Origin: Paraspadella gotoi
Lineage: Eukaryota; Animalia; Chaetognatha
Assembly: GCA_051294375.1 (NCBI GenBank)
Contig: CM119265.1
Location: 18,524,631-18,588,630, forward strand
Reading direction: 5' to 3'
DNA: 64,000 nucleotides
Position numbers and translations under genes: made by a program. Each line of letters opens with the position of its first letter. Positions within the stretch are counted from its first letter, which is position 1. Below the pieces are notes generated by a model that saw only the letters and a program-made list of their open reading frames with translations, had not been told where the DNA came from and searched no databases. This document shows positions 1,638 to 57,300 of this stretch, one piece after another.

Positions 1638-1862
1638 AGAAGAAAGCATTTTTGATTAAAAATATTTTAATACTATATTTTATCAAAGCAATATTTTTTT
1701 AAATGCTAAAAATATTTAAGGAGTTTTAATGAATATACTTACAATTTGAATGTCTATATATCTATCATTATCTACAAAGCATAAACTTTAATTTAAGACC
1801 ATTACCAACTTTCTACGATTTTTCGTTATTAAATTATAAGAAAAATTATAATAAAAAAATTA

Positions 1863-34190
<32,328 letters not shown>

Positions 34191-34420: not shown

Positions 34421-37400
34421 CATCGTGAACTTAAGAGCAATAAACAAGAACTCGGTAAAATTTTACTTTCGCAGACTGGGATTTTCGCTTTTTTAAGTTA
34501 ATGTTTAAATAATAAAAAAATAATAAAAACTATTCCCCATTTTAATTCTAAACCTTTTTAACCTTAATTTACCTTTAATGCTAAATTACTCTTAATCTAT
34601 ACTTTTCCTAAACTCCCTTAACTCTAATCTGTGAATGTAAAATTATGCATAAAAAATAAAATAAAAACTATTAATCATTTTTTTTGGTTCTTATAAATAA
34701 TATTTAAAAAATTTATTATATAAAAAAATCTTAAAAGCACAAGGATCGTCGTAATCGCATAAGGAAAATCTGGATTGACGACAAATTTTGATACTAAAAA
34801 AAATAAAATTTGAGAAAAGAAAATTAATTTATAAACAAAGAAAAATTCAACTTTGCGATTGTCAATTTAAAATAATAATAAAGTACTGAGGAAAATTAAA
34901 GTTACAGTTTCTGAAAAAAAAGAAAAAGCATAAAAATGTATTTTTATAAATTATTTTTAACTTCAACCATTTTTAAATTATAATTCATTGAAATAATGAA
35001 AGACCCCCAACAATGATGTCGTCGGCGATTCGCGCATAAAGCGCGTGGTTTGCGCTTCGGCCTCTATGGGCTTAACCCTGTACCTAATCCATTCCTTCAG
35101 CTCGTAACATCGCTAACAAATATCGTTTAACTTTAACCCAAAACCGGACCCTGATCTAAACCTTAACCCGAGCCAATTTCCCTGGCTTTGCGATTTTACC
35201 ACTACCAGCAAACTTTTCATCCTTAACCCAGGCCTTATACCGAGCAAAAACCCTAACCCTAGTGAAGTCACTAACCAATTAAAAAAATATGTTATATAAT
35301 TATAAATATAATAAAATATCAAAAAAATAATGATAATAATCCTAATCATGTAATCTGTATAAAAGGAAAAGAGTTAATATAAATTAATACATAATGATAA
35401 TCAATTAAAATTAATTAGAGTTTAAACCAATGCTTTATTAAACAAACCACAAATAGGAGACGTTGACAGTTTCAGTACTTCAAGAATTTGAATCCAACAA
35501 TAAAAATATATGAAAGCTTAAAATTAGGGACCAACTCCATAGATAATATAAAATTTTGACTATTAGCAAAGTTTTTTTAGTTATCTTGACTAAATATTTT
35601 TATGCGATAACAAATTATTAATGTAATAATAATTGATTGATATAATAATAATTGATTAATATATAATAATTGATTAATATAATAATAATTGATTGATGTA
35701 ATAGTAATTGATTATTGATTCAATGATAACCAAATATTGATACGATGATAACTAAATAATGGATGCGATGATAACCAAATGATGGATGCGATGATAATCA
35801 TTCATTGATCCGATGATAATCATTCATTGATCCGATGATTATCATTCATTGATCCGATAATAATCCTTCATTGAAGCTATAATCATTTATTGATATGATA
35901 ATAGTCATTTATGGCTGCGATAATAAATATTTATTGATGCAATAATATTTGATATTCATTAATACGATGAAAATCATTCATTGATGCGATAAGTTATTGA
36001 TCGTAAATAAAACAAACAAATACATATATGGGTAAGAAAAAAAAAGGAAAAAAAAAAGAAAAAAAAATAGAAGCTGGACAGCCGCTGCAGAGTTTAAGTT
36101 AAACTTTAACTCGTTTTAAATGAATCAGAAGAAGCAGCAACGGAAAAAAACGAGGTTTATATATATAAAAATTATTTTGTAAATAAAACAAACAAATAAA
36201 TGAAGGAATATGAAACTTAACAAGACCTCAATGATGAAAAGACATATCTAAATATTTAACTTCCTATAGTTACCTCAAAAAAAATTTCCGTCATATGCCC
36301 TGCGTGTTCGAACCGTTTTACTTTAGGATTTAGGATGCTTATTACAATATTAGTTAAAAGTTAATTAACATCTGAGAATAATTGATAATTTTATTTATAT
36401 TTATAATTGGAGCTAAAATTTAAAAATTAAAATGGAAAGGGAGACAACGTATAAATTTTTAAACATGTGAAGTAACGGAAAGAAATTTAGAAATTTTTAA
36501 AGTTTAAATATTAGAAATTTAACGCCTATGGCATTTAAATTATGCTTTTTCTCCATCCGTGCCGGTGTCTGAGGATTGCAGTTTTCCAGATTGCTGTCAT
36601 GATAATTGAAAGAGCGGCCAATACAAGTGGTTCTGCAGATTCGTCCTCTCTTTCAAAAGGCTTCAACTCGAGGCCGACATCAAAACAAACCGGCGGATCC
36701 AAAAGACCACGGCCCACGCCAGGCCCAGGCCGACTCAACAGGACCAGGCCTCTCTTAAAAACATTACTGCTTCCACCTCCTTTATTTAATTCGGTATTTG
36801 TTATTTTCCATTGCATTTTAACATCTCGAAGGTTAATTTTTCCTTTTTTTAAAAATAATTCGGCGGTCAGACTGCTTTTTGTTTGTTAATCGTTAGGCAT
36901 TTGTTAAGCGGGAAATTCTGCTGATATCTTTTCCAACGATTATCTACTGGCTACGGTATTACTGTATATATCCGCATCTTTGCCAGTTTCTATTCTCGTA
37001 TGTTGCAAGTTAGAACTTCATTCATTCAATTTATGAATAATTAATAAATATAAAAGTTTGATTATGACTCCAATATGAGGACGTTCGCATTTCCTCCTGG
37101 ACTTGGGAATGCAAATGTGCTGAAAAAAAAAGCACTTTAACGAGTTCATGGACATAATGACATTATCGCCTGTTATATTTATTCGTTCTTGCTACCTTGC
37201 AGTGTTGATTTTACTTTTTTTACTTTTAATCCTTCATAAACCGGGACCTCGAGCCAATAACTCAAGTTGGCATTCCTGGAGATTAATTTAATACGCTCCA
37301 GAATTCTCTGGGAAAACGAAAAGCAAGGATCCAGGATTGCCCTCAAGTTTATTCTAGCAGTTTCCTATAATTAAAACAAACTTTAAAATTTTAATTAATT

Positions 37401-37443: not shown

Positions 37444-38206
37444 TTCCTGGAGATCAATACGCTGTGGAGGTATATGGAAAAGGAAGAGCAAGCTTTTTCT
37501 TAAAGAATTAATGGGAAAAAAAGAAATAATGGAAAAGGATAATTTCTCCGAAAAAAAATTAAAGGAATTCAGATATTATAATTTTTTAATATTTATTATT
37601 TTTGTTATATATTTAGGTAAAAATTAATGTTATGATAAATTATGGTTAAGAATAAATTAATAAAAAAAATAAATTAGGGTTAAGGGTAAGTTAAGGTTAG
37701 GGGTCAGTTAGGGTTACGGGTAAATTAAGGTTAAATTTAAAATTAAGTTTTAGCTTAAAAATTTAAATAATTTAAAAGAAATATTTTAATATTAATAAAT
37801 TTATAAAAAAAAATATATATAATATATAATATTTATAAAATAACCATTTTTTTATTTATGATTACAACAATCATTTTATAATTCGGAGAGAGAAAGGATA
37901 TGAAAGTTAATATTTAAATATTTTTTAAAACTATCAAAACTGGTTGATAAAGGTTCGAAGAACAAAAACCGAAAAATCTGAATTATTAAATGATTGTTGT
38001 AATCATAAATAAAAACTTTATTACTTAGTAAATATTTAATAAAGTAACGAAAAAAAAATATTATAAATACTAATATTTAAAAAAAAAATCCTTCGCCGTG
38101 AAGCTTATCATCGTTTTTAATATTGTTTCTTTTCCGTAAAGAAGCGAATTTTATTTTATTTTATTTTTTTTCCCATAAGCCTCCAGAGCGTATTCAACTC
38201 CGGGAT
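37444..38206. mobile_element. MITE with ~35-bp imperfect terminal inverted repeats
   Basis: TCCTGGAGATCAATACGCTGTGGAGGTATATGGAA vs TCCCATAAGCCTCCAGAGCGTATTCAACTCCGGGA; internal TTAGGG-like array ~37675-37735. Confidence 0.7.
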
Positions 38207-38300
38207 CGCCGAATAATCAAAATTGTTATTATTTTTAATTCTGGCTTAGTTTTTTTAAATTTTCAGTGAAAGAGATATTTTTTTAAAAAAAAATTGTACA

Positions 38301-38950
38301 ATGCGAGCGTTAATTCAAAGAGTTTCTAAGGCCAGCGTCGTTGTGGATAATACCGTCGTCAGTACTATAAAAAATGGCATCTGTGTTCTTTTGGGAATTT
38401 GTCGAGAGGTGATTCTTATTAATTATAGGCCGAATTTTTAAAAAACAATTACATCTATTTAATGTTGTTGTTGGTTTTTTGTAGGATACTTTTGCAGATG
38501 TGGAGTATATCGCTCGAAAATTGTTGAATTTACGACTTTTTGACGACGATCATGGAAAGCGCTGGGCAAAAAGCGTTAAAGATAAAAATTTCGATATTTT
38601 GTGCGTCAGTCAATTTACATTACACGCAGTTTTAAAGGGTAATAAACCGGATTTTCATCAGTCAATGGATGGGACTATAAGTAAGCCTTTGTTTGATTCG
38701 TGTATTAATCTTCTGGAACAAGGCTACAATGCGGAGAAAATCAAAACTGGTGTAAGTTATTTCTTATTTCAGTATTAACAGTATCAAACTGAATGCATTT
38801 AAATATATTTTTTAGGTATTTGGTGCAATGATGCAAGTCGAAATTACAAATGATGGTCCTGTCACGATATCCTTGGATTCTAGTCACATTGAATTTAAAC
38901 AGAAAAATGGCACGTTTCTTGACCAAATGCGTTGTAATTTAATGATCTAA
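38301..38950 (+). CDS. DTD1: D-aminoacyl-tRNA deacylase 1 (domain; probably fused to downstream AIMP3 exons)
   Basis: Exons 38301-38408 (MRALIQRVSKASV), 38485-38751 (LRLFDD, SQFTL, KGNKPDFH), 38816- (FGAMMQVEITNDGPVTI; catalytic Gly-Pro intact). Unspliced read-through stops at TAA 38948-38950. Confidence 0.95.
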
Positions 38951-38988
38951 TATCAGTTAGCACGAGAATAATTACGGTCGTTCTACAG

Positions 38989-39615
38989 GAAAAGTATCCA
39001 GAGGGCCTACTCAAACTACCGCTCAATCAAGAGAAATGAAGGATGGCAATACTTCCCAAGAGAAAGAAGAAACACGAATTGTAAATAAAAGGATAAAATA
39101 CTTTATTAATCATAAGTATATGAATTAGGATCATGTTTTTATAGGTAAATGATCATGAATCTGGAAATACTTTTGTTGATCATTGGAACGAACGTCTTCA
39201 GGCCTGCGCAACGATTTTAGGAGCGCAAATTAGTTTTCCTATAGAATCGGTTCTCACTACTCTAAAAGCCATGGCAGCAGATTACGATGCTGACCTTCTT
39301 GGAAAATCTGATGAGGAACACGCTCTAGTTGATCAGTGGATTTACTATGGGATTGAGCGCTTTGACGAAAATGCCAAAGATTTCCCGTCTATGAAAGAAA
39401 TTGACGATTATCTTTCTTCGAGAGTGTTCTTTGTCGGGCACAACTTAACGATTGTTGATATTTTTGTATTCGTATGTCTGCATCAACGAGTATCACTGTT
39501 CACGCTCCTGGAGAAAGAAAATTTATTAAACTTACTCAGATGGTTTGCTTGGGTACAAAAGTCTTTCCACACAACATTATCCCCAGTTGTTTTTCAGCGA
39601 TCTCTGTTGTACTGA
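38989..39615 (+). CDS. EEF1E1: AIMP3/p18 GST-like scaffold of the multi-aminoacyl-tRNA synthetase complex
   Basis: Exons 38989-39080 and 39145-39615 (phase-0 GT-AG). LLGKSDEEHALVDQWIYY, YLSSRVFFVGHNLTIVD, EKENLLNLLRWF and SPVVFQRSLLY parallel human AIMP3 LLGSTAEEKAIVQQWLEY, YLEDKVYLTGYNFTLAD, EKEKYLNVSRWF and SSVVFIKNRLY (recalled). Confidence 0.85.
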
Positions 39616-39801
39616 TGTTATTATACTTCTAAAATATTTTTGAAGTTACCTGCTTCGTTGAATAACATGTATTCGTGTTGTTCGCTGAGGTCTGCCATGG
39701 ATGCTCGTAGCTCAAACTTGAGCATTTGCTGTGTTGAACATTAGCCTTATTTATTATTTTAAAATTTTGTGTTTTAGATTCTATTTAAATATTCAGACAA
39801 A

Positions 39802-42800
39802 ATGAGTTTGTCTTTCGGAGCTCCTGCATCAGCTCCCGCTGCGTCAATGGCACAGCCATTGTTTGGGACGACTACCTCAACAACATCCACAGTAGCACCA
39901 ACTTTTCCCTCGTTTGGTTTTGGCGCAACAAATCCAGCAACATCGACAACTGGTAATAGTAATAATAATTTCGATCTTATGTGCGGTAGTGTGTAATAGG
40001 TAAAGTTTTTTTTTTACCACACTCTTACGGTAGGTGCTACAAATTTGTTTTCCAAGCCGGCAACGAACACCGTGACATTCGCTCCTCAGCCACAAACTTC
40101 TACGGGATTCACCTTTGCCTCACCTGCACTTAGCGTCGCTCCCGCTCCCATTGTAACCTCATCCATTCCCTCGGTCACAGCGCCTACAATCACGACGGCA
40201 CAGCCAAAGGTCGGTCTCGGGGGTGTTAATCCCGAGTCAAACTCCTTAGGATTTTCATCGGGAAGTGCTGGCCCCTCCGGTTCCGGAACCGACACCAGCA
40301 AGACGAATGAACAGCAGTCACTGAAAGAGCAGGAAATTCCAGCTTCGCTTAAAGCGGAGGTCACTTCCTTTAAGGAGCATGTCAAACGCGTTAAGACTGT
40401 TCGCGAAAATATCGCCCGTTTTTCAGCGAAGCCTTTCCACAAGGTTTTGGAAGATGTGAACGCTATGAGCAAACTCTTAGCCGAACTGAGCAACAATCTT
40501 CATAAAAATGTGACTACGGTGGAGAAGCTTCGGTTTGACACGCACCGCGATCTGAAAAACGCCGAGATAGCTGTCCGCACTCGCGATACGCCGCCAGGAC
40601 TGCAGTATGAGAACGTGGCCCCAATGACCTATTTTCAATACATGGTTGACGACTTCGAAGCCAGAATGCAGACCTATCGGCAACAGATAGAACAGTTGGA
40701 GAGTTACTTAGCCGTCTCCACCGGTATTCAAGCGACCACGCTTTCTCCGCAAACGTTGGCGACGCTCATTCAGCAAATTCAGGATTCCTTTATGCAAATT
40801 GCCGGTGAGGTCCAGCGACAATTACTTAATTTTATAGTCATGATTCTTGTAGTATTAGTGTCTAGTAATAGTTTATAATTGATTCGGTCTTGCATACCAG
40901 ATGGAAAATAATAAAACAAAGTAGATTTAATAATTTATTCATTGTGAAAGAGCAATTACTTAGTAAATGAATTGTGGGAGTCCTTTGAAACCGAATAACA
41001 AATCAATGTGTAAAGTATTTACAATAATTTATGTATATTTTATATATATGTATATTGTATAAACGTATCAAGCAAACGAAAGAAATAATGAAAAGTCGAA
41101 TATAGTATTTAATATTGTACTTATGTACATTAACGAAATAAAATATTTAGGTCGAGCAGGTAGCATCAACGTTGCTGGTTGAGGCTATTTATTGCCCAGA
41201 CGGATCGATGATCCAAGGTGACCCGATTCGAAGTCGTCCAGGGAATGATAGTCGATAATATTTTTGCCTAATTAGGTCAACTTCAAGTCGTTCACGAGAA
41301 AATTCAAACGCAGAAAGAACATTATCTTAACTACCGAAAGTTCATTCTTGACGATGAGAGTGACATTTTCGCTAGCGACAGCTCAAAGCCCTCAAGTAAG
41401 AGAGGAGGACGCCAGTCGTTGGCCTCCACGGGCCCGCCTCCCTTCGGGTCAACGTTTGCTCAAAAATCCACGATGGCGTCGATCTTTGCAGCATTGCAGG
41501 CCACTCAGCAACCCGCCGTAACTCAACAGCAAGTAGTTAGTATCAAAAATAATTTTTTGTTGAAAGAGTTCTTTTTAATATGTTCATTGTTAAACTAATT
41601 TTCTGATTAAATGAAATGTATCAGATGCCCACTGCGACGCCGGGCACGATGCCATTCATCAACCCTGGTTCCACCGGCAACGCCGCTCCGCCAACGCTAT
41701 CGCTTGGAGCCTCGAAACCGACAGATCTATGGGGAAAAATTCAACAGAATCAACCTCCTTTTGGGGCAGTAGGCGAGTTTTAAAAATTGGGTAGTTACTA
41801 ATTAGGGGCTATTCTGATCGGTGCTAATAGGATTAGTTTAGTGCCACACAGACAGGACAAATTACCGCTTCAGAACTTCGGATCTACTGGTGGGTTAAAA
41901 ACCAATGGGGCGCGAACCCAAGGCCGCTTTGTGGGAAGAGAGAATGCTCGCTCTTACGCCACTGCTGCTTCGCCGATGGAATGAAGCGGATAGTGAATAA
42001 GTGAAGTAACTTAATATGTTGCCACATTAGTTATTAGTTAATTATTTTTATTAATTTTTTGTGCTCCTATTTTCAGAAGACAAAACTCTTTCTTCTCTCC
42101 ATAATATTATTAATTTATTTATTATTTAATTAATATTAGATCTAATAATTAGTATTTTATGTAAGATATCTTTTGAGGCAAAATGATTTTGTTTCACAAC
42201 GAATTTTATTTTTATCATATAAACGTACATGTTTCGTTTATATGATAAAAATAAAATTCGTTGTGAAACAAAATCATTTTGCCTCAATACATATAACAAC
42301 GAAAAAGAAAGGTTATTACCACTATGTAAGATATCTTACACTTTTCAAAACTTTTCAAAACTTTTCAAAAAATTAGTCTATTGTAATAAAAGTTTTTGTA
42401 CATCAAGAAAAGTAATTTAATGGAATATTGAAAAATATGAATACACATGATATTTTAAGCTATTAATTACCCTATTAAAAGCAGCAGACCCTTAAAATTT
42501 CGCTAATCTTTGCAATACAAGAACGCTTTGCAGCGTTTAAAATCAGTTGTATTCATTGTAACTTGATAATTGAATAACATATCTTGCTGAAGTGAAAGTG
42601 TTTTACTTAGTTTCATAGCCTTTTTTATAAATTCGCCTCAGGAAATGCCTCAGCCTTTACCAATTCATCTTTCAACGCGTCTGGCGCCGGCGGTTTTGGC
42701 TTGCCCGCTTTGTCGCAGACCTCTTACAACTCTGCTGGGACTCTTTTTGGAGCGAATCCCAACGCGGCTACAGTTTTTGGCACTCCAGCCACAGCCCCGT

Positions 42801-42847
42801 TAACCCTCGCAAAACCTCCCGCAGGAAATAAGAGAGGAAAAAGATAA
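39802..42847 (+). CDS. NUP58: Nucleoporin p58/p45
   Basis: Exons 39802-39952, 40034-40804, 41276-41532, 41625-41772, 42642-42847. FG-rich termini, VGLGG, LKNAEIA.RT..TPPGLQYEN.AP..YF, YRQQIEQLE, YLNYRKF, C-terminal KPPAGNKRGKR typical of metazoan Nup58. Confidence 0.92.
41800..41975 (-). mobile_element. Probable tRNA-derived SINE fragment in NUP58 intron
   Basis: Minus strand shows A-box-like TGGCGTAAGAGCG and B-box-like GGGTTCGCGCCC about 30 nt apart. Confidence 0.4.
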
Positions 42848-42993
42848 ACGTGTTTCCCTGAGACTTTTTATAGCTGATCTTTTAAAATTTTTGTCCATCT
42901 GTATAGAAACTATTTTTGGATTTAATATACTTTTTGCATCTGGAAAATAGTGTTTCAAACGACGGATTAACTAAAGTTGAAAGACCCAGAAAA

Positions 42994-45900
42994 ATGGGAA
43001 TACCAAAATTTTATCGATGGATAAGCGAACGATATCCTTGCTTGAGCGAGGTGGTGAAGGAACACCAGATCCCCGAGTTCGACTGTCTATATTTAGACAT
43101 GAACGGCATTATTCACCAGTGCTCTCATCCCAACGATGACGACCCTCACTTTCGCATCTCAGAGGAGAAGATTTTTAAGGATATCTTCCATTACATCGAG
43201 ATCTTGTTTCGCATGATCAAACCCAAGCGGTCTTTCTTTATGGCCGTCGACGGCGTGGCTCCACGGGCCAAAATGAACCAGCAACGCGGTCGCCGTTTTC
43301 GCGCGGCCAAGTGCGCCGAGGACGCCGTCAAGGAGGCTTTGGAAAAGGGGGAGGACCTGCCCGCAGAAGAGAGATTTGACTCCAACTGCATCACGCCCGG
43401 TACCGGCTTCATGGCAAAACTACAAGAACAATTAAAGTACTTCGTTACACGAAAAATGACAGAAGACAGGTTAGTTAGAACTCTTCGAATTTTAAACGGA
43501 TTTCCAATCGGAGTGAAAAGATTTGTTATTACTCTTAACTGACTCAATATGATTGATATTTGATCATTTCATTAGTTAGAAAATATAAAATAAAAAGGGC
43601 TGTCATTGTGGCTGTGAAAAAGTTTTAAAACATTCTGATTGCTCAAATTTTTAAATTTTTAAATTTTTAAACATTTTTTATTTTCATAAAAATATATCTT
43701 ACAACAATAAGGTGCTATTCATATGCAAAAATTTTCTTTTTTTGAAATTCGACCATGGCATTAATGAGCGCATAACTAAGAAACTTAGCAAGCTGGACCA
43801 CTGGGAGTTAAAAAATAAAAAACTTCAGAAATTTTTTTTACTAGGGTGCAAAATTTGAAGTTGCTATAATTAATAATTTAGCCACAGTATCTTTTCATTT
43901 CACTCGCATTTGAAATCCGTGTATCTTGCGAATATTTTTTAGTAATTTTATTTTTGAATATTTGTTAATTTTATCAAAAAAAACAAAACTTTTTTTTAAA
44001 ATAACGGAAATAGAACTTCTTTTAATTTATTACTTCATGCTCATCCTTTTTGGTAACAGATCTTGGCACGGAGTGGACGTTTACCTCTCTGGTCACGACT
44101 GCCCAGGCGAAGGGGAGCACAAGATCATGGACTTTATCCGATGGAAGAGATCGCACCCCGACTACGATCCCAACACCCGACATTGCCTCTACGGTCTGGA
44201 CGCCGATCTCATCATGCTGGGCCTCTCCTCACACGATCCACGTTTCTCGCTCCTGAGGGAAGAAGTGCGATTCGGCAAGCAAGCTCAATCGAAGCGCATC
44301 ACCGCGCCAGAAGAGACCACTTTCCATTTGCTACATCTGGGTCTCATGCGCGAGTATATTGAGATGGAGTTTGCTGACATTTCAGTTCAAGTCACTCACT
44401 TCGACATCGACAAGCTCATCGATGACTGGATCCTCATGGCCTTTCTCGTCGGGAACGACTTCATTCCTCATCTGCCACATCTTCACATTCACCAAGACGC
44501 TCTGACGATTCTCTTTGGGATCTATAAGAAAGTTATGCCCAAATTAAAGGGTTATATCAATGAGGGGGGTCGTCTCAATCTGGAAAGATTCCAGACGTTC
44601 ATGGAAGAGCTGGGCAAGTGGGACGAGGACACCTTTCGCGACGAATGGGAGGATCTTTCCTGGCTGGAGGGGAAAAAGGCGATGAAAGGGATGGAAGAAA
44701 ACTCGAAGAACGAATCCAAGAAGCAAAAAACTCTGGAGAGCGCCGCTCCGATCGATACCAGCAATCCTTTTGCTATGTTGGACAAGCAGCGTCTAGAAGA
44801 GGCCATGGCCGAAGATCCAGACGAAGAGCTTGAAGACTTTGGGTTTGGGTCCCCGCAAATTGTTCAACGAGTCGGGGAGCTCCCGGGTGGAACCTCCGCC
44901 GCAGATCTTACCGACGAGGAGATGTTTCAGATGGAGTTCGCGCAGCACAAGTCTCACTACTACATGGACAAGATGGGATTCAAGGAAGTGACGCCTGTTG
45001 TGCTGCACGAACAAGCAGTCACCTATGTGACTGCGATTCAATGGAATCTCCTTTATTACTACGACGGTTGTTCGTCGTGGGGATGGTTTTATCCTCATCA
45101 TTACGCCCCTTTCGCTTCAGACATCAAAGGATTTAAACACCTTAAGATCGAATTCGAGTTCGGAAAGCCGTTTTTGCCGTTCCAGCAGTTACTTGCTGTT
45201 TTGCCCCCATACTCTAAAAAGCATCTTCCCTCTGCCTATCACTCCCTCATGACGGAGCCAACTTCGCCCGTTATAGACTTCTATCCAACAAATTTTGACC
45301 TGGATCTCAACGGAAAACAACAGGTTAGAAAATTTGATAACGAGACCATCCATTAGTAGAGCGTAGTGAAAGTATTTTATGAAAATTCTAAAAGTCAATT
45401 ATGAACAACGTACCACCAGTGAACTCTTAATGTACGTGTAGTAAAAAAATAGATTTTTTTAAATTTTCGCAGTATGCGATATTTATATATAGTACGATCC
45501 TTGCTATCCCACTATTAAAATTTCAAAAAAGGCATTTTTTAATTTTGATGGCAGATTCGTAAAAAGTTGATAAAAAAATCATTTCGATGTTCTGAGATGA
45601 TATAAGTGACTTAGCGAAAAGATAATGGGGGGCGACCGACAGACCGACAAAAGGAATTATAGAGCCGAAATCTGCTTATCAGCAGAACCGACTAAAAATT
45701 ATAAATGGGAAATGTAGATTTCTGAAAGAGGAATCTATATGTATAAGACTATAAGGTTTTTAAAAAATCGGTTATTCAAGAGGTTAATAATACGTTTTTC
45801 TTCTTCTCTCGCGCTCTGTTTGAGTATTTTTTAAAAATCATTGCTCGCAAGTGGATAGGTAAATTTTAACTAAATTTTACCAATATTTCCCTTTTTTATG

Positions 45901-54308: not shown

Positions 54309-57300
54309 ATGGTTTTTGAGTCCATCATCGTGTCGGCGCTGAATCCGATTCTAGGAAAATATATCGAGGATCTTGACGCAGGACAATTGAGAGTGGGAAT
54401 TTTGGGCGGGGACATCAAATTAGAGCACCTCAAACTCAAGGCCAACATATTGGCCGATCTCGATTTACCGATATCGGTCCATACAGGTAACTCGTGTGAT
54501 TATTTACGCGACTCAAGGTTTTATCCCTTATACTAGGGGTAGCCCCACTCAATGGGGTGAGTCAAAAATTTTAAATGATTACATGCTCAAACGAAAATTT
54601 ATACATTTTGAAGTATACTTTCAATGGAAAAAACATTTCTTATGTGGCTCTATACCCAAAAATTTAATTTTTTTAATATTTATTTATAAATGGGAAAGGC
54701 CAAAATTTTTCTTTGATAATTTTTAAATTTTAAGACCAGATTCAGATAGCTCATAAAAAGTTGTCGACACAAAGTATAATTTTTTTAAAAATATTTTCAT
54801 GATAAGCGAGTCAAAAATAAGAAAAACCGTAAAAAATCATCATTATCTTTCGCTGATTTTATAATTTTTTTATATTTTCACATAGAAAACGTAAGAATTT
54901 TTTAAAGCTTTAATTATATTCCTTGTTTAACTTTTTATGCTCTATCAGAATCCATAAAAACATTTTTAGATCTCAAAAAAAAAATTTTNNNNNNNNNNAG
55001 ATCTAAAAAAAAATTTTATAATATAAAAAAGACAAGTAATATTTAATCTATTAATCAAGACGTATAATGTAAATTTTTTTTGAAAATGATTGCTTAAATA
55101 TTTAGTCAAGACAACTAAAAATACTTTGCTAATAGTCGAAATTTTTTATTATCTCTTGAGTTGGTCCCTGCTTATACGTAAATGGGGTGGGGTGAATTAT
55201 TCTCTGTCCCTTCCCCAGGGTATCTCAAAAAATTGGTGGTGAAAATTCCGTGGAAGAACCTCTATACGGAACCCGTTGTCATCAACATCGAAGGTCTCTA
55301 CCTACTGGCGACGCCAAATTCCGCATCCGAGTATGACCCAGCGGCTGAGGCGGCGTCCTTGCTGCAAACAAAAAAGGATGCCATTTCGAGGTTTTTTCCT
55401 AGAAAATTGTTTTAACGTAATAAATACATTATAACTTCTACGTATATATTATTAACGTTGAATCATCGATGCAGGTACGAAGCCTCGCGATCGCCGCCGC
55501 TTGAAGCCGCAGTGCCGTCTACACCCGGATTTACGGAAAAACTCGTCACTCAGATCGTGAAGAACGTGCAAATTGTCATCAACGACATTCATGTAAGATA
55601 CGAGGATGTGGTCACGGACCCAGATCATCCGGTCTCGGCTGGGGTTACGCTGAATCGACTCACGGTGAGACGAAACGAAGTCCCTCGTAAAATTTTTTGC
55701 CCAACGGGTTCGGTGACTGACGATTCTTTCCAAAATATTTAGTTTCAAACGTGTGACGAAAATTGGAGCCCAAAGATAATGGCCGACATGTCGACGCAAA
55801 TCTATAAACTGATCAGCATGGATTCGCTAGCGCTCTACTGCAACGCAATCGATTCAGAGACGACGCTTTCTCATCGCGGTGTCGGGTTGGAGGCAGTTTT
55901 GGCGCCCATGCAGAAATTAATAGCCAGGACAGACTACTGTCCCAAGGGCATGAAGTAAGCGGACACTAATTGGGTTAGAAATTGGTGAAAGTTTACGTTC
56001 GACATAAATGTTACGTTCCATCATAAACGCAGGTATCTCGTAAAACCGATAACGATGACTTCTCACGCAACGATCGAGACTCGGCCGGAACTAAAAGAGT
56101 TTAAAGTTCCCAAGGTCAACCTCGACATCTCTTTTCGCGAAATCGCCTTCACTTTTCATTCCACTCAATTCGAACAGGTTTGACTTGCACCCTATCAGGC
56201 ATTGAGCAATGAGCATTGCTTTATTATCGAAATTTCCTAGGCTGTCGCCTTTGGAAGCGCCGTAGACCAAATGATGGTGGCCAAAGAATACAAAAGATAC
56301 CGACCCGCGGTAAGCTTTCTCGTTTTTTTTTTTCTGACTTTCTTTATTATAGAGATTTTTTTGACCAGGCTAATTTACGTAACAATTATTCGCTATTGTG
56401 GCGTTTCGCAATAGAAGCCATTATGGAAGAACACATCAAGCCGAAGCATCGGCAGTGGACGTGGGAGTTTATGTCCGAAAGGTACTGTATTTTCGTTAAA
56501 TATTAGTTGTCGTAATATTTTAGAGTTTTTAAGAGAAAACAAAGAGTATTTGAATTTGTTACAACGATTTATTTATCACATGTAAGAGTTGTTAAAAAAT
56601 ATTTACTATAAAACTTGCAGAATAAAATTGAGAAAGCACTATCAATCGGCGTGGACACGAAAATTGTCCCGGAAAAACCCATCTAAGGAATTGTTAGCGG
56701 AGATTGAAGTCCTCGAATCCAATCCAGCATTGGACGTCTTTAACATCATCATCGCCAGACAAATTGCCACAAAAGAATACGAAATGACGTCCAAGAAGAA
56801 AAAAGGTACATATTGCGATTTTTTTATATTTCGTTTAAATATCTTGGCCTTTTTTGTTTAGTTGTTATATCTATGTGTTTTAAGTACATGTATTAAAATT
56901 TTTAAGATAATTTACAGTTTTCAAAAGGTCCAAAGCTCAAAAAGGTAGGTTAATGAATGGATAATTATTATATTGGTTGTACCAATTTCATGACAAAATC
57001 TAATATATATAAAATCTAATAATACGGTGGTGCCAGTTGTATTATCCAACGACCCTACCCAATACCCATAATCTTGAAAATCAAAATCACGCGTGGGGTG
57101 AAAGAGAATTTACCTCACCGTAAGTTCTTCAGTTTCTACAAAGGAGTCGGGACGTTCCTGATACTTTATTCTATTTCAGGAGATGAAGACAAGTCTTGGG
57201 GTTCTTGGATGGGTGGTTGGTTCAAAAACAAAGAGAAGGAGAAGTCGCCTTCGCCCGAAAAGACGAAGCAAGAAGGCGGCGTTGAAGCCGTCATGAATAA

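Follow-up and report, generated by a model that had tools for sequence, protein, structure and literature searches.

A spliced, conserved DTD1-AIMP3 fusion gene that probably anchors a D-aminoacyl-tRNA deacylase at the multi-synthetase complex

A single spliced gene in the window (the whole 64-kb stretch of DNA analysed, which is AT-rich and has short introns) encodes the D-aminoacyl-tRNA deacylase DTD1, a linker and the scaffold protein AIMP3 in one reading frame, and this fusion is conserved in other sequence types. The AIMP3 end probably docks the dimeric deacylase on the GST core of the multi-synthetase complex, where D-aminoacylated tRNAs would be cleared near their source; both binding and activity are what we infer from the gene product. 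In earlier descriptions, DTD1 edits in trans as a free-standing dimer, and AIMP3 is a small scaffold without enzymatic activity. The two families are known and their fusion is the new element; no description of it was found in the open-access literature, where gene tables in supplements, including those of chaetognath genomes, may already list the architecture.

The gene comprises five coding exons on the forward strand. Exon 1 (38301..38408) encodes DTD1 residues 1-36 including Arg7, with a Pfam Tyr_Deacylase match at 1-34 (E 3.5e-9). It is followed by the 76-nt GT-AG intron 1 (38409..38484) and by exon 2 (38485..38751), which provides the DTD1 core with the SQFTL motif (Pfam E 4.2e-23) and has human DTD1 (2okv) as its top PDB match (E 7.4e-25). 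Behind intron 2 (38752..38815, 64 nt, GT-AG), exon 3 (38816..38909) contains the last part of DTD1 (positions 125-144 of the Pfam profile), including the Gly-Pro motif NDGPVT, and the start of the linker. The fusion intron, intron 3, is a 79-nt GC-AG intron in phase 1 (38910..38988). Exon 4 (38989..39080) encodes the charged linker, including an ATG at 39036, and intron 4 (39081..39144, 64 nt, GT-AG, phase 0) separates it from exon 5 (39145..39615), which encodes the GST-like domain of AIMP3 (p18, EEF1E1) without its N-terminal beta-strand segment and with the Arg of the last helix kept. All four introns are spliced out in a transcript-type contig. Joining the five exons gives 1032 nt and a product of 343 aa with a single terminal stop, in the order intact DTD1, charged linker, AIMP3, which reproduces the open frame predicted in the initial annotation. 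No further copies of DTD1 or AIMP3 were detected within the 64-kb window.

Intron 3 has the donor AATG/GCACGT at 38910 and the acceptor TTCTACAG ending at 38988; a TCTAAT at 38946-38951 overlaps an in-frame TAA (38948-38950) within the intron. An open frame is also obtained with 27 donor/acceptor pairs of the region and on its own is therefore poor evidence for a GC-AG intron. Among these frame-opening pairs, the pair 38910-38988 is singled out by a contig of run X1 from Logan (length 2585 nt, depth 260; shorter side 93 letters). The four predicted introns are missing from this contig as skips of 76, 64, 79 and 64 nt, and a further skip of 81 nt falls in a downstream Nup58-like gene. The 79-nt skip can be placed in three equivalent registers, of which only 38910-38988 has splice-type ends (GC..AG). 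The donor, the TCTAAT motif, the acceptor and the intron length proposed from the bare sequence are all present and coincide with an exact 79-nt skip, and the likewise proposed GT-AG intron at 39081-39144 is skipped as well; a check of the junctions 38909/38989 and 39080/39145 had been suggested, and one X1 contig contains both.

The locus contig was obtained from X1 alone among the three runs compared, X2 and X3 aligning nothing. The RNA status of X1 is a guess in the run record, and X1 is possibly the source of the window itself; the five clean intron skips in the contig imply that X1 represents spliced RNA. This evidence is an assembled contig rather than reads, in which rare isoforms are invisible. 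It establishes that the spliced form exists, and other forms may occur beside it.

The DTD1-AIMP3 fusion is conserved across sequence types. When 365 stored proteins and the window model were analyzed together, both domains occurred in 10 proteins, namely the window model and nine proteins of five other types (P0151; P0001/P0271; P0154; P0153/P0273; P0246/P0274/P0275), drawn from three sources (JGI, Logan and merc). The search for proteins combining Tyr_Deacylase with a GST-like domain, recommended in the initial annotation, thereby returned the same architecture in five other sequence types. Among 1.84 billion representatives, the top match of exon 5 was P0001 (371 aa, residues 208-371). In a search of longer proteins from the DTD side, P0151, P0001, P0153 and P0154 ranked first or close to first, and P0246 was likewise among the matches listed (best 120 of 343). 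With a profile of the fusion, no additional fused cluster appeared among the matches listed (best 120 of 1292), and none of the best 80 of 530 DTD loci from a scan of metagenome contigs had an AIMP3 match. Word searching of longer proteins with the AIMP3 exon gave 0 of 495 candidates, a sensitivity miss as judged by the later fusion matches. Several shorter proteins that might have represented separate genes, P0152 (190 aa) and P0002/P0270/P0272, were judged to be fragments: P0152 and P0270 both cluster with full fusions, and P0272 seems to be an exon preceded by translated intron sequence.

The linkers are 45-95 residues long, 36-42% charged and poorly conserved. In four of the five other types (P0151, P0001, P0153/P0273 and P0246) the stretch from the end of DTD to the second AIMP3 helix contains no Met, which rules out a separate start of AIMP3 there; a linker Met is present in P0154 and in the window.

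The DTD1 half is complete. DTD1 is known as a homodimer with a cross-subunit Gly-cisPro that acts on both D-aminoacyl-tRNA and Gly-tRNA(Ala). Each of exons 1-3 scored above the Pfam cut-off for Tyr_Deacylase (PF02580), and the fusion proteins P0151, P0153 and P0246 reached 173-181 bits. DTDs are distinguished from ATDs by SQFTL, N-x-GPVT and Arg7 as opposed to PQATL and TNGPYTH, and are homodimers with cross-subunit active sites, according to parts of PMC5802732. Arg7, SQFTL and N-x-GPVT occur in all six fusion types (NDGPVT in the window), so by sequence their motifs are of the DTD and not of the ATD type. The fusion thus shares with human DTD1 (2okv) the full domain and its three motifs, and the C-terminal AIMP3 domain is present only on the fusion side of the comparison. 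Source-named DTD1 rows had no GST-like Pfam domain among the matches listed (best 120 of 343 and best 120 of 1292), and stand-alone fungal DTDs are listed in part of PMC4301749.

Other extended DTD1 proteins were encountered in the same searches. Echinoderm and hemichordate DTD1 proteins (P0155, P0156, P0161, P0237, P0284, P0295 and P0300; 318-353 aa) carry PF02671, which we take to be the PAH domain, a different C-terminal addition in another lineage. P0277 from Darwinula (447 aa) has three Tyr_Deacylase stretches, possibly tandem copies or an annotation artefact; the DTD1-containing Diadema proteins P0167-P0169 are 1423-1575 aa long, and P0264 (487 aa) combines Tyr_Deacylase with PF00026.

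In phylogenetic trees of the DTD part, of the AIMP3 part and of both combined, the window model, P0151, P0001, P0153 and P0154 formed one long-stemmed clade. Its support was 100 SH-aLRT in the AIMP3 tree (43 rows), 100/100 in the combined tree (17 rows) and 99 SH-aLRT in the DTD tree (93 rows), for which only a quick search was run and from which P0253 and P0266 were dropped as too short. The stem branch of the clade measured 1.18 in the AIMP3 tree, and in the DTD tree the clade fell outside the tunicate, insect, vertebrate, coral and mollusc groups. Identities within the clade are 39-73% for AIMP3 and 69-86% for DTD, which indicates that the fusion has persisted through a long divergence. P0246 fell outside this clade in each of the three trees, and every one of the 200 bootstrap trees of the combined set likewise excluded it. 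Together with P0274/P0275 it carries a full-length AIMP3, which grouped weakly with the AIMP3 proteins of Owenia and Tubulanus (86 SH-aLRT). These placements suggest that P0246 may represent a second, independent fusion origin. A single origin was not rejected by AU tests of the AIMP3 tree (p 0.59, the constrained tree being better by 4.1) and of the combined tree (p 0.33).

The second half of the protein is recognizable as AIMP3 both by sequence and by predicted fold, being closer to EEF1E1 than to EPRS, EF1B-gamma or GST enzymes. Exon 5 matched human EEF1E1 with an E value of 5e-17, compared with 4e-7 for EPRS. Among the top 20 AIMP3-side matches looked up, all 16 source-named clusters were from animals, and 14 of the 16 were titled EEF1E1/AIMP3 or GST C-terminal domain protein. 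The model of the AIMP3 part, built from a 72-row alignment, had a pLDDT of 90.5 and was all-helical with no strands; a model of the full-length fusion from an 8-row alignment (pLDDT 54) was set aside. Foldseek found the AIMP3-part model closest to human AIMP3, and VIA-align gave Z 18.4 and rmsd 2.4 with 142 aligned for 2uz8, against Z values of at most 14.4 for other GST-like chains. Human AIMP3 (2uz8, 4bvx, 5bmu) is accordingly the top match in sequence and fold, sharing helices 2, 3 and 7, which are present in the window model, and the Arg of the last helix. The motif RWF occurs in all six fusion types, in the window within a predicted helix at 128-140; conservation of its Arg across the 72-row alignment is 90% or higher.

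The fusion copy differs from unfused AIMP3 in its position behind DTD1 and, in the window's clade, in a deletion and a drifted helix-3 motif. All five clade members are missing 20-23 residues between the first and the second helix relative to unfused AIMP3s, in line with the loss of about 20 N-terminal residues suspected earlier, which holds against most of them. From the model and the known fold, we take the missing residues to correspond to the N-terminal beta strands of the GST fold; the window's clade therefore lacks a complete GST-like fold with N-terminal strands, and P0246 keeps the segment. All 11 unfused AIMP3s and P0246 have the Glu of the helix-3 W-L/V-E motif, compared with only one of the five clade members. 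AIMP3 contacts MetRS via helices 2 and 3 (interface 1) and EPRS via an Arg stack of helix 7 (interface 2), as described in part of PMC9136112. Because of the deletion and of the helix-3 Glu being kept in only one clade member, the MetRS contact of AIMP3 in the window's clade may be altered or lost.

If the window's clade and P0246 do represent two independent fusions, these could point, in the manner of a Rosetta stone, to DTD1 working at the multi-synthetase complex of animals in general. The DTD dimer of the window's clade would then make AIMP3 bivalent, so that two GST cores become cross-linked and a new assembly rule takes the place of the lost beta-sheet. We consider this extended proposal doubtful.

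The fusion gene lies in an operon-like context. On one strand, the window region 38267-42994 contains DTD1-AIMP3, the Nup58-like and an XRN1-like gene, and the X1 contig covers the first two. A spacer of 186 nt (39616..39801), crossed by the contig, leads from the stop of the fusion to the start of the Nup58-like nucleoporin gene (39802..42847, forward strand; Pfam Nucleoporin_FG2, E 2.7e-43), and the XRN1-like gene starts at 42994, 146 nt past Nup58, on the same strand (Pfam XRN_N, E 1.5e-62). A chaetognath genome study, as far as set out in part of PMC12460157, assigned same-strand genes less than 250 nt apart to operons, and the stop-to-start gaps of 186 and 146 nt fall within this limit. 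With this spacing and a long-branched animal clade that lies outside the tunicate, insect, vertebrate, coral and mollusc DTD groups, the host is probably a chaetognath. Six gene names had no match in a part of the supplement of that study. Directly before the 5' end of the contig, which aligns from 38267 with two letters left over and one mismatch, an acceptor-like TTTTCAG is located (38260..38266, forward strand), a weak hint at a possible spliced-leader trans-splice site. The 5' end of the contig, with its two spare letters, had no clear match to the leader ends in Table 3 of PMC2481426. The locus may record the conversion of an operon into a fusion gene by way of a GC-AG intron: two operon-like neighbours would have been joined once a weak GC donor was cis-spliced to a downstream acceptor.

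How the fusion protein might work can be outlined from its two halves. All DTDs dimerise, and the DTD parts of the fusion would do likewise, giving two AIMP3 arms per dimer on flexible charged linkers. AIMP3 could then bind the GST domain of EPRS via the kept last-helix Arg of interface 2, and perhaps MetRS via interface 1. Tethered in this way, the enzyme would strip D-amino acids off freshly charged tRNAs before their uptake by EF1A. AspRS mischarges D-Asp, marine invertebrates have high levels of free D-amino acids, and the most plausible substrate within the complex would be D-Asp-tRNA from the nearby AspRS. This synthetase sits on the AIMP2-EPRS-AIMP3-MetRS GST core (PMC6760448, in part).

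Tethering is favoured by the spliced contig, by the DTD motifs and RWF in six of six types, by the recovery of the same clade from both domains and by the AIMP3-like fold. Against it stands the degradation of the AIMP3 part relative to other animals, with its 20-23-residue deletion and the mostly lost helix-3 Glu, as well as the variable length and low conservation of the linker. TyrRS and AlaRS are the classic sources of the errors that DTD corrects. Part of PMC4394549 names nine synthetases in the vertebrate complex, and neither of the two is one of them, which weakens the need for tethering.

The same features can be explained by a passive collapse of the operon, in which neighbours were fused by a splicing change that was tolerated, DTD stayed a free enzyme and AIMP3 became vestigial or stayed outside the complex, or the linker is cut. 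The operon-like gaps to unrelated genes and the continuation of one contig into Nup58 fit this course of events, and since the gene cluster is shared with the unrelated Nup58 and XRN1, the adjacency of DTD1 and AIMP3 may be an accident. The long AIMP3 stem branch, the deletion, the drifted helix 3 and the variable linker point in the same direction. However, the C-terminal helices, RWF and the terminal motif of AIMP3 have persisted although identity between the types is only 39-73%, the domain is still confidently modelled as AIMP3, and P0246 is a similar fusion with an intact AIMP3. We therefore regard passive collapse as unlikely. Even less of a case can be made for a chimeric assembly or a chance frame joining two separate genes. 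That the locus was found in one run only, as a contig, that a two-gene contig does not prove a single transcript and that 27 splice pairs open the frame would all be compatible with such an artefact, but the stretch spliced out at the junction is a genomic intron bounded by GC..AG, the identical order of the two domains recurs in proteins from JGI, Logan and merc, and both domains recover the same clade. This reading is already largely refuted and scarcely credible.

The gene might also have a dual output, with the GC-AG intron acting as a switch between the fusion and separate proteins. Splicing would give the fusion; retention of intron 3 would yield DTD1 alone (169 aa), ending at the in-frame TAA, and trans-splicing at 38988 would allow AIMP3 alone (171 aa) to start from the ATG at 39036. 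Because the stop within the intron and the internal ATG are retained, both separate frames are intact and separate proteins are possible in the window species; GC donors are weak splice donors, and the linker of P0154 has a Met as well. On the other hand, depth falls to a similarly low level in intron 3 and in intron 1 (bins of 59 and 68 against 260), although contigs drop rare variants. A scan for five AATAAA-type motifs found none in intron 3, and the linker Met is absent from four of the five other types. On this balance a splicing switch is very unlikely, and a tethered deacylase produced as one fusion protein remains our preferred explanation.

Parts of the arrangement have precedents elsewhere. 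By analogy, the closest functional one is the complex of Trypanosoma brucei, in which MCP3 is likewise a trans-editing deacylase within a multi-synthetase complex; it edits Ala-tRNA(Pro), its promiscuity being limited by a complex member (PMC11286415, in part). MCP3 has an INS/YbaK-type domain instead of the DTD fold and no AIMP3 fusion, and belongs to a protist rather than an animal. The nematode MetRS-p43 (PMC4394549, in part) likewise combines a complex scaffold and an enzyme in cis within one animal lineage, but there a synthetase is joined to AIMP1/p43, whereas here a proofreader that is no known complex member is joined to AIMP3. The archaeal ThrRS likewise has a DTD fold fused in cis to the charging machinery (PMC7373986, in part); its DTD-like domain edits for one synthetase, in contrast to the canonical DTD1 and the non-enzymatic scaffold of the present fusion. 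A link of AIMP3 to editing has been reported in mice, where it is tied to homocysteine editing by MetRS (PMC12259467, in part). If the tethered reading is true, the fusion would anchor proofreading inside the tRNA-charging complex. As a natural and conserved fusion it offers a ready test of whether the multi-synthetase complex serves as a fidelity hub with proofreading beside charging, and the strand-less AIMP3 indicates which parts of the scaffold are dispensable.

Elsewhere in the window, degenerate TTAGGG-like tracts, possibly parts of a repeat element, are found upstream of the fusion gene at about 37670-37760 on the forward strand and at 35070-35270 and 34540-34630 on the opposite strand. 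Further coding stretches include a WD40 exon (1860-2216, reverse strand), a C2H2 zinc-finger frame (13404-14717, reverse strand), a patatin-like phospholipase in one long frame of 693 aa (26080-28161, forward strand) and a VPS13-like gene from about 55416 on the forward strand. An assembly gap of 10 N is located at 54989-54998, far from the fusion gene.
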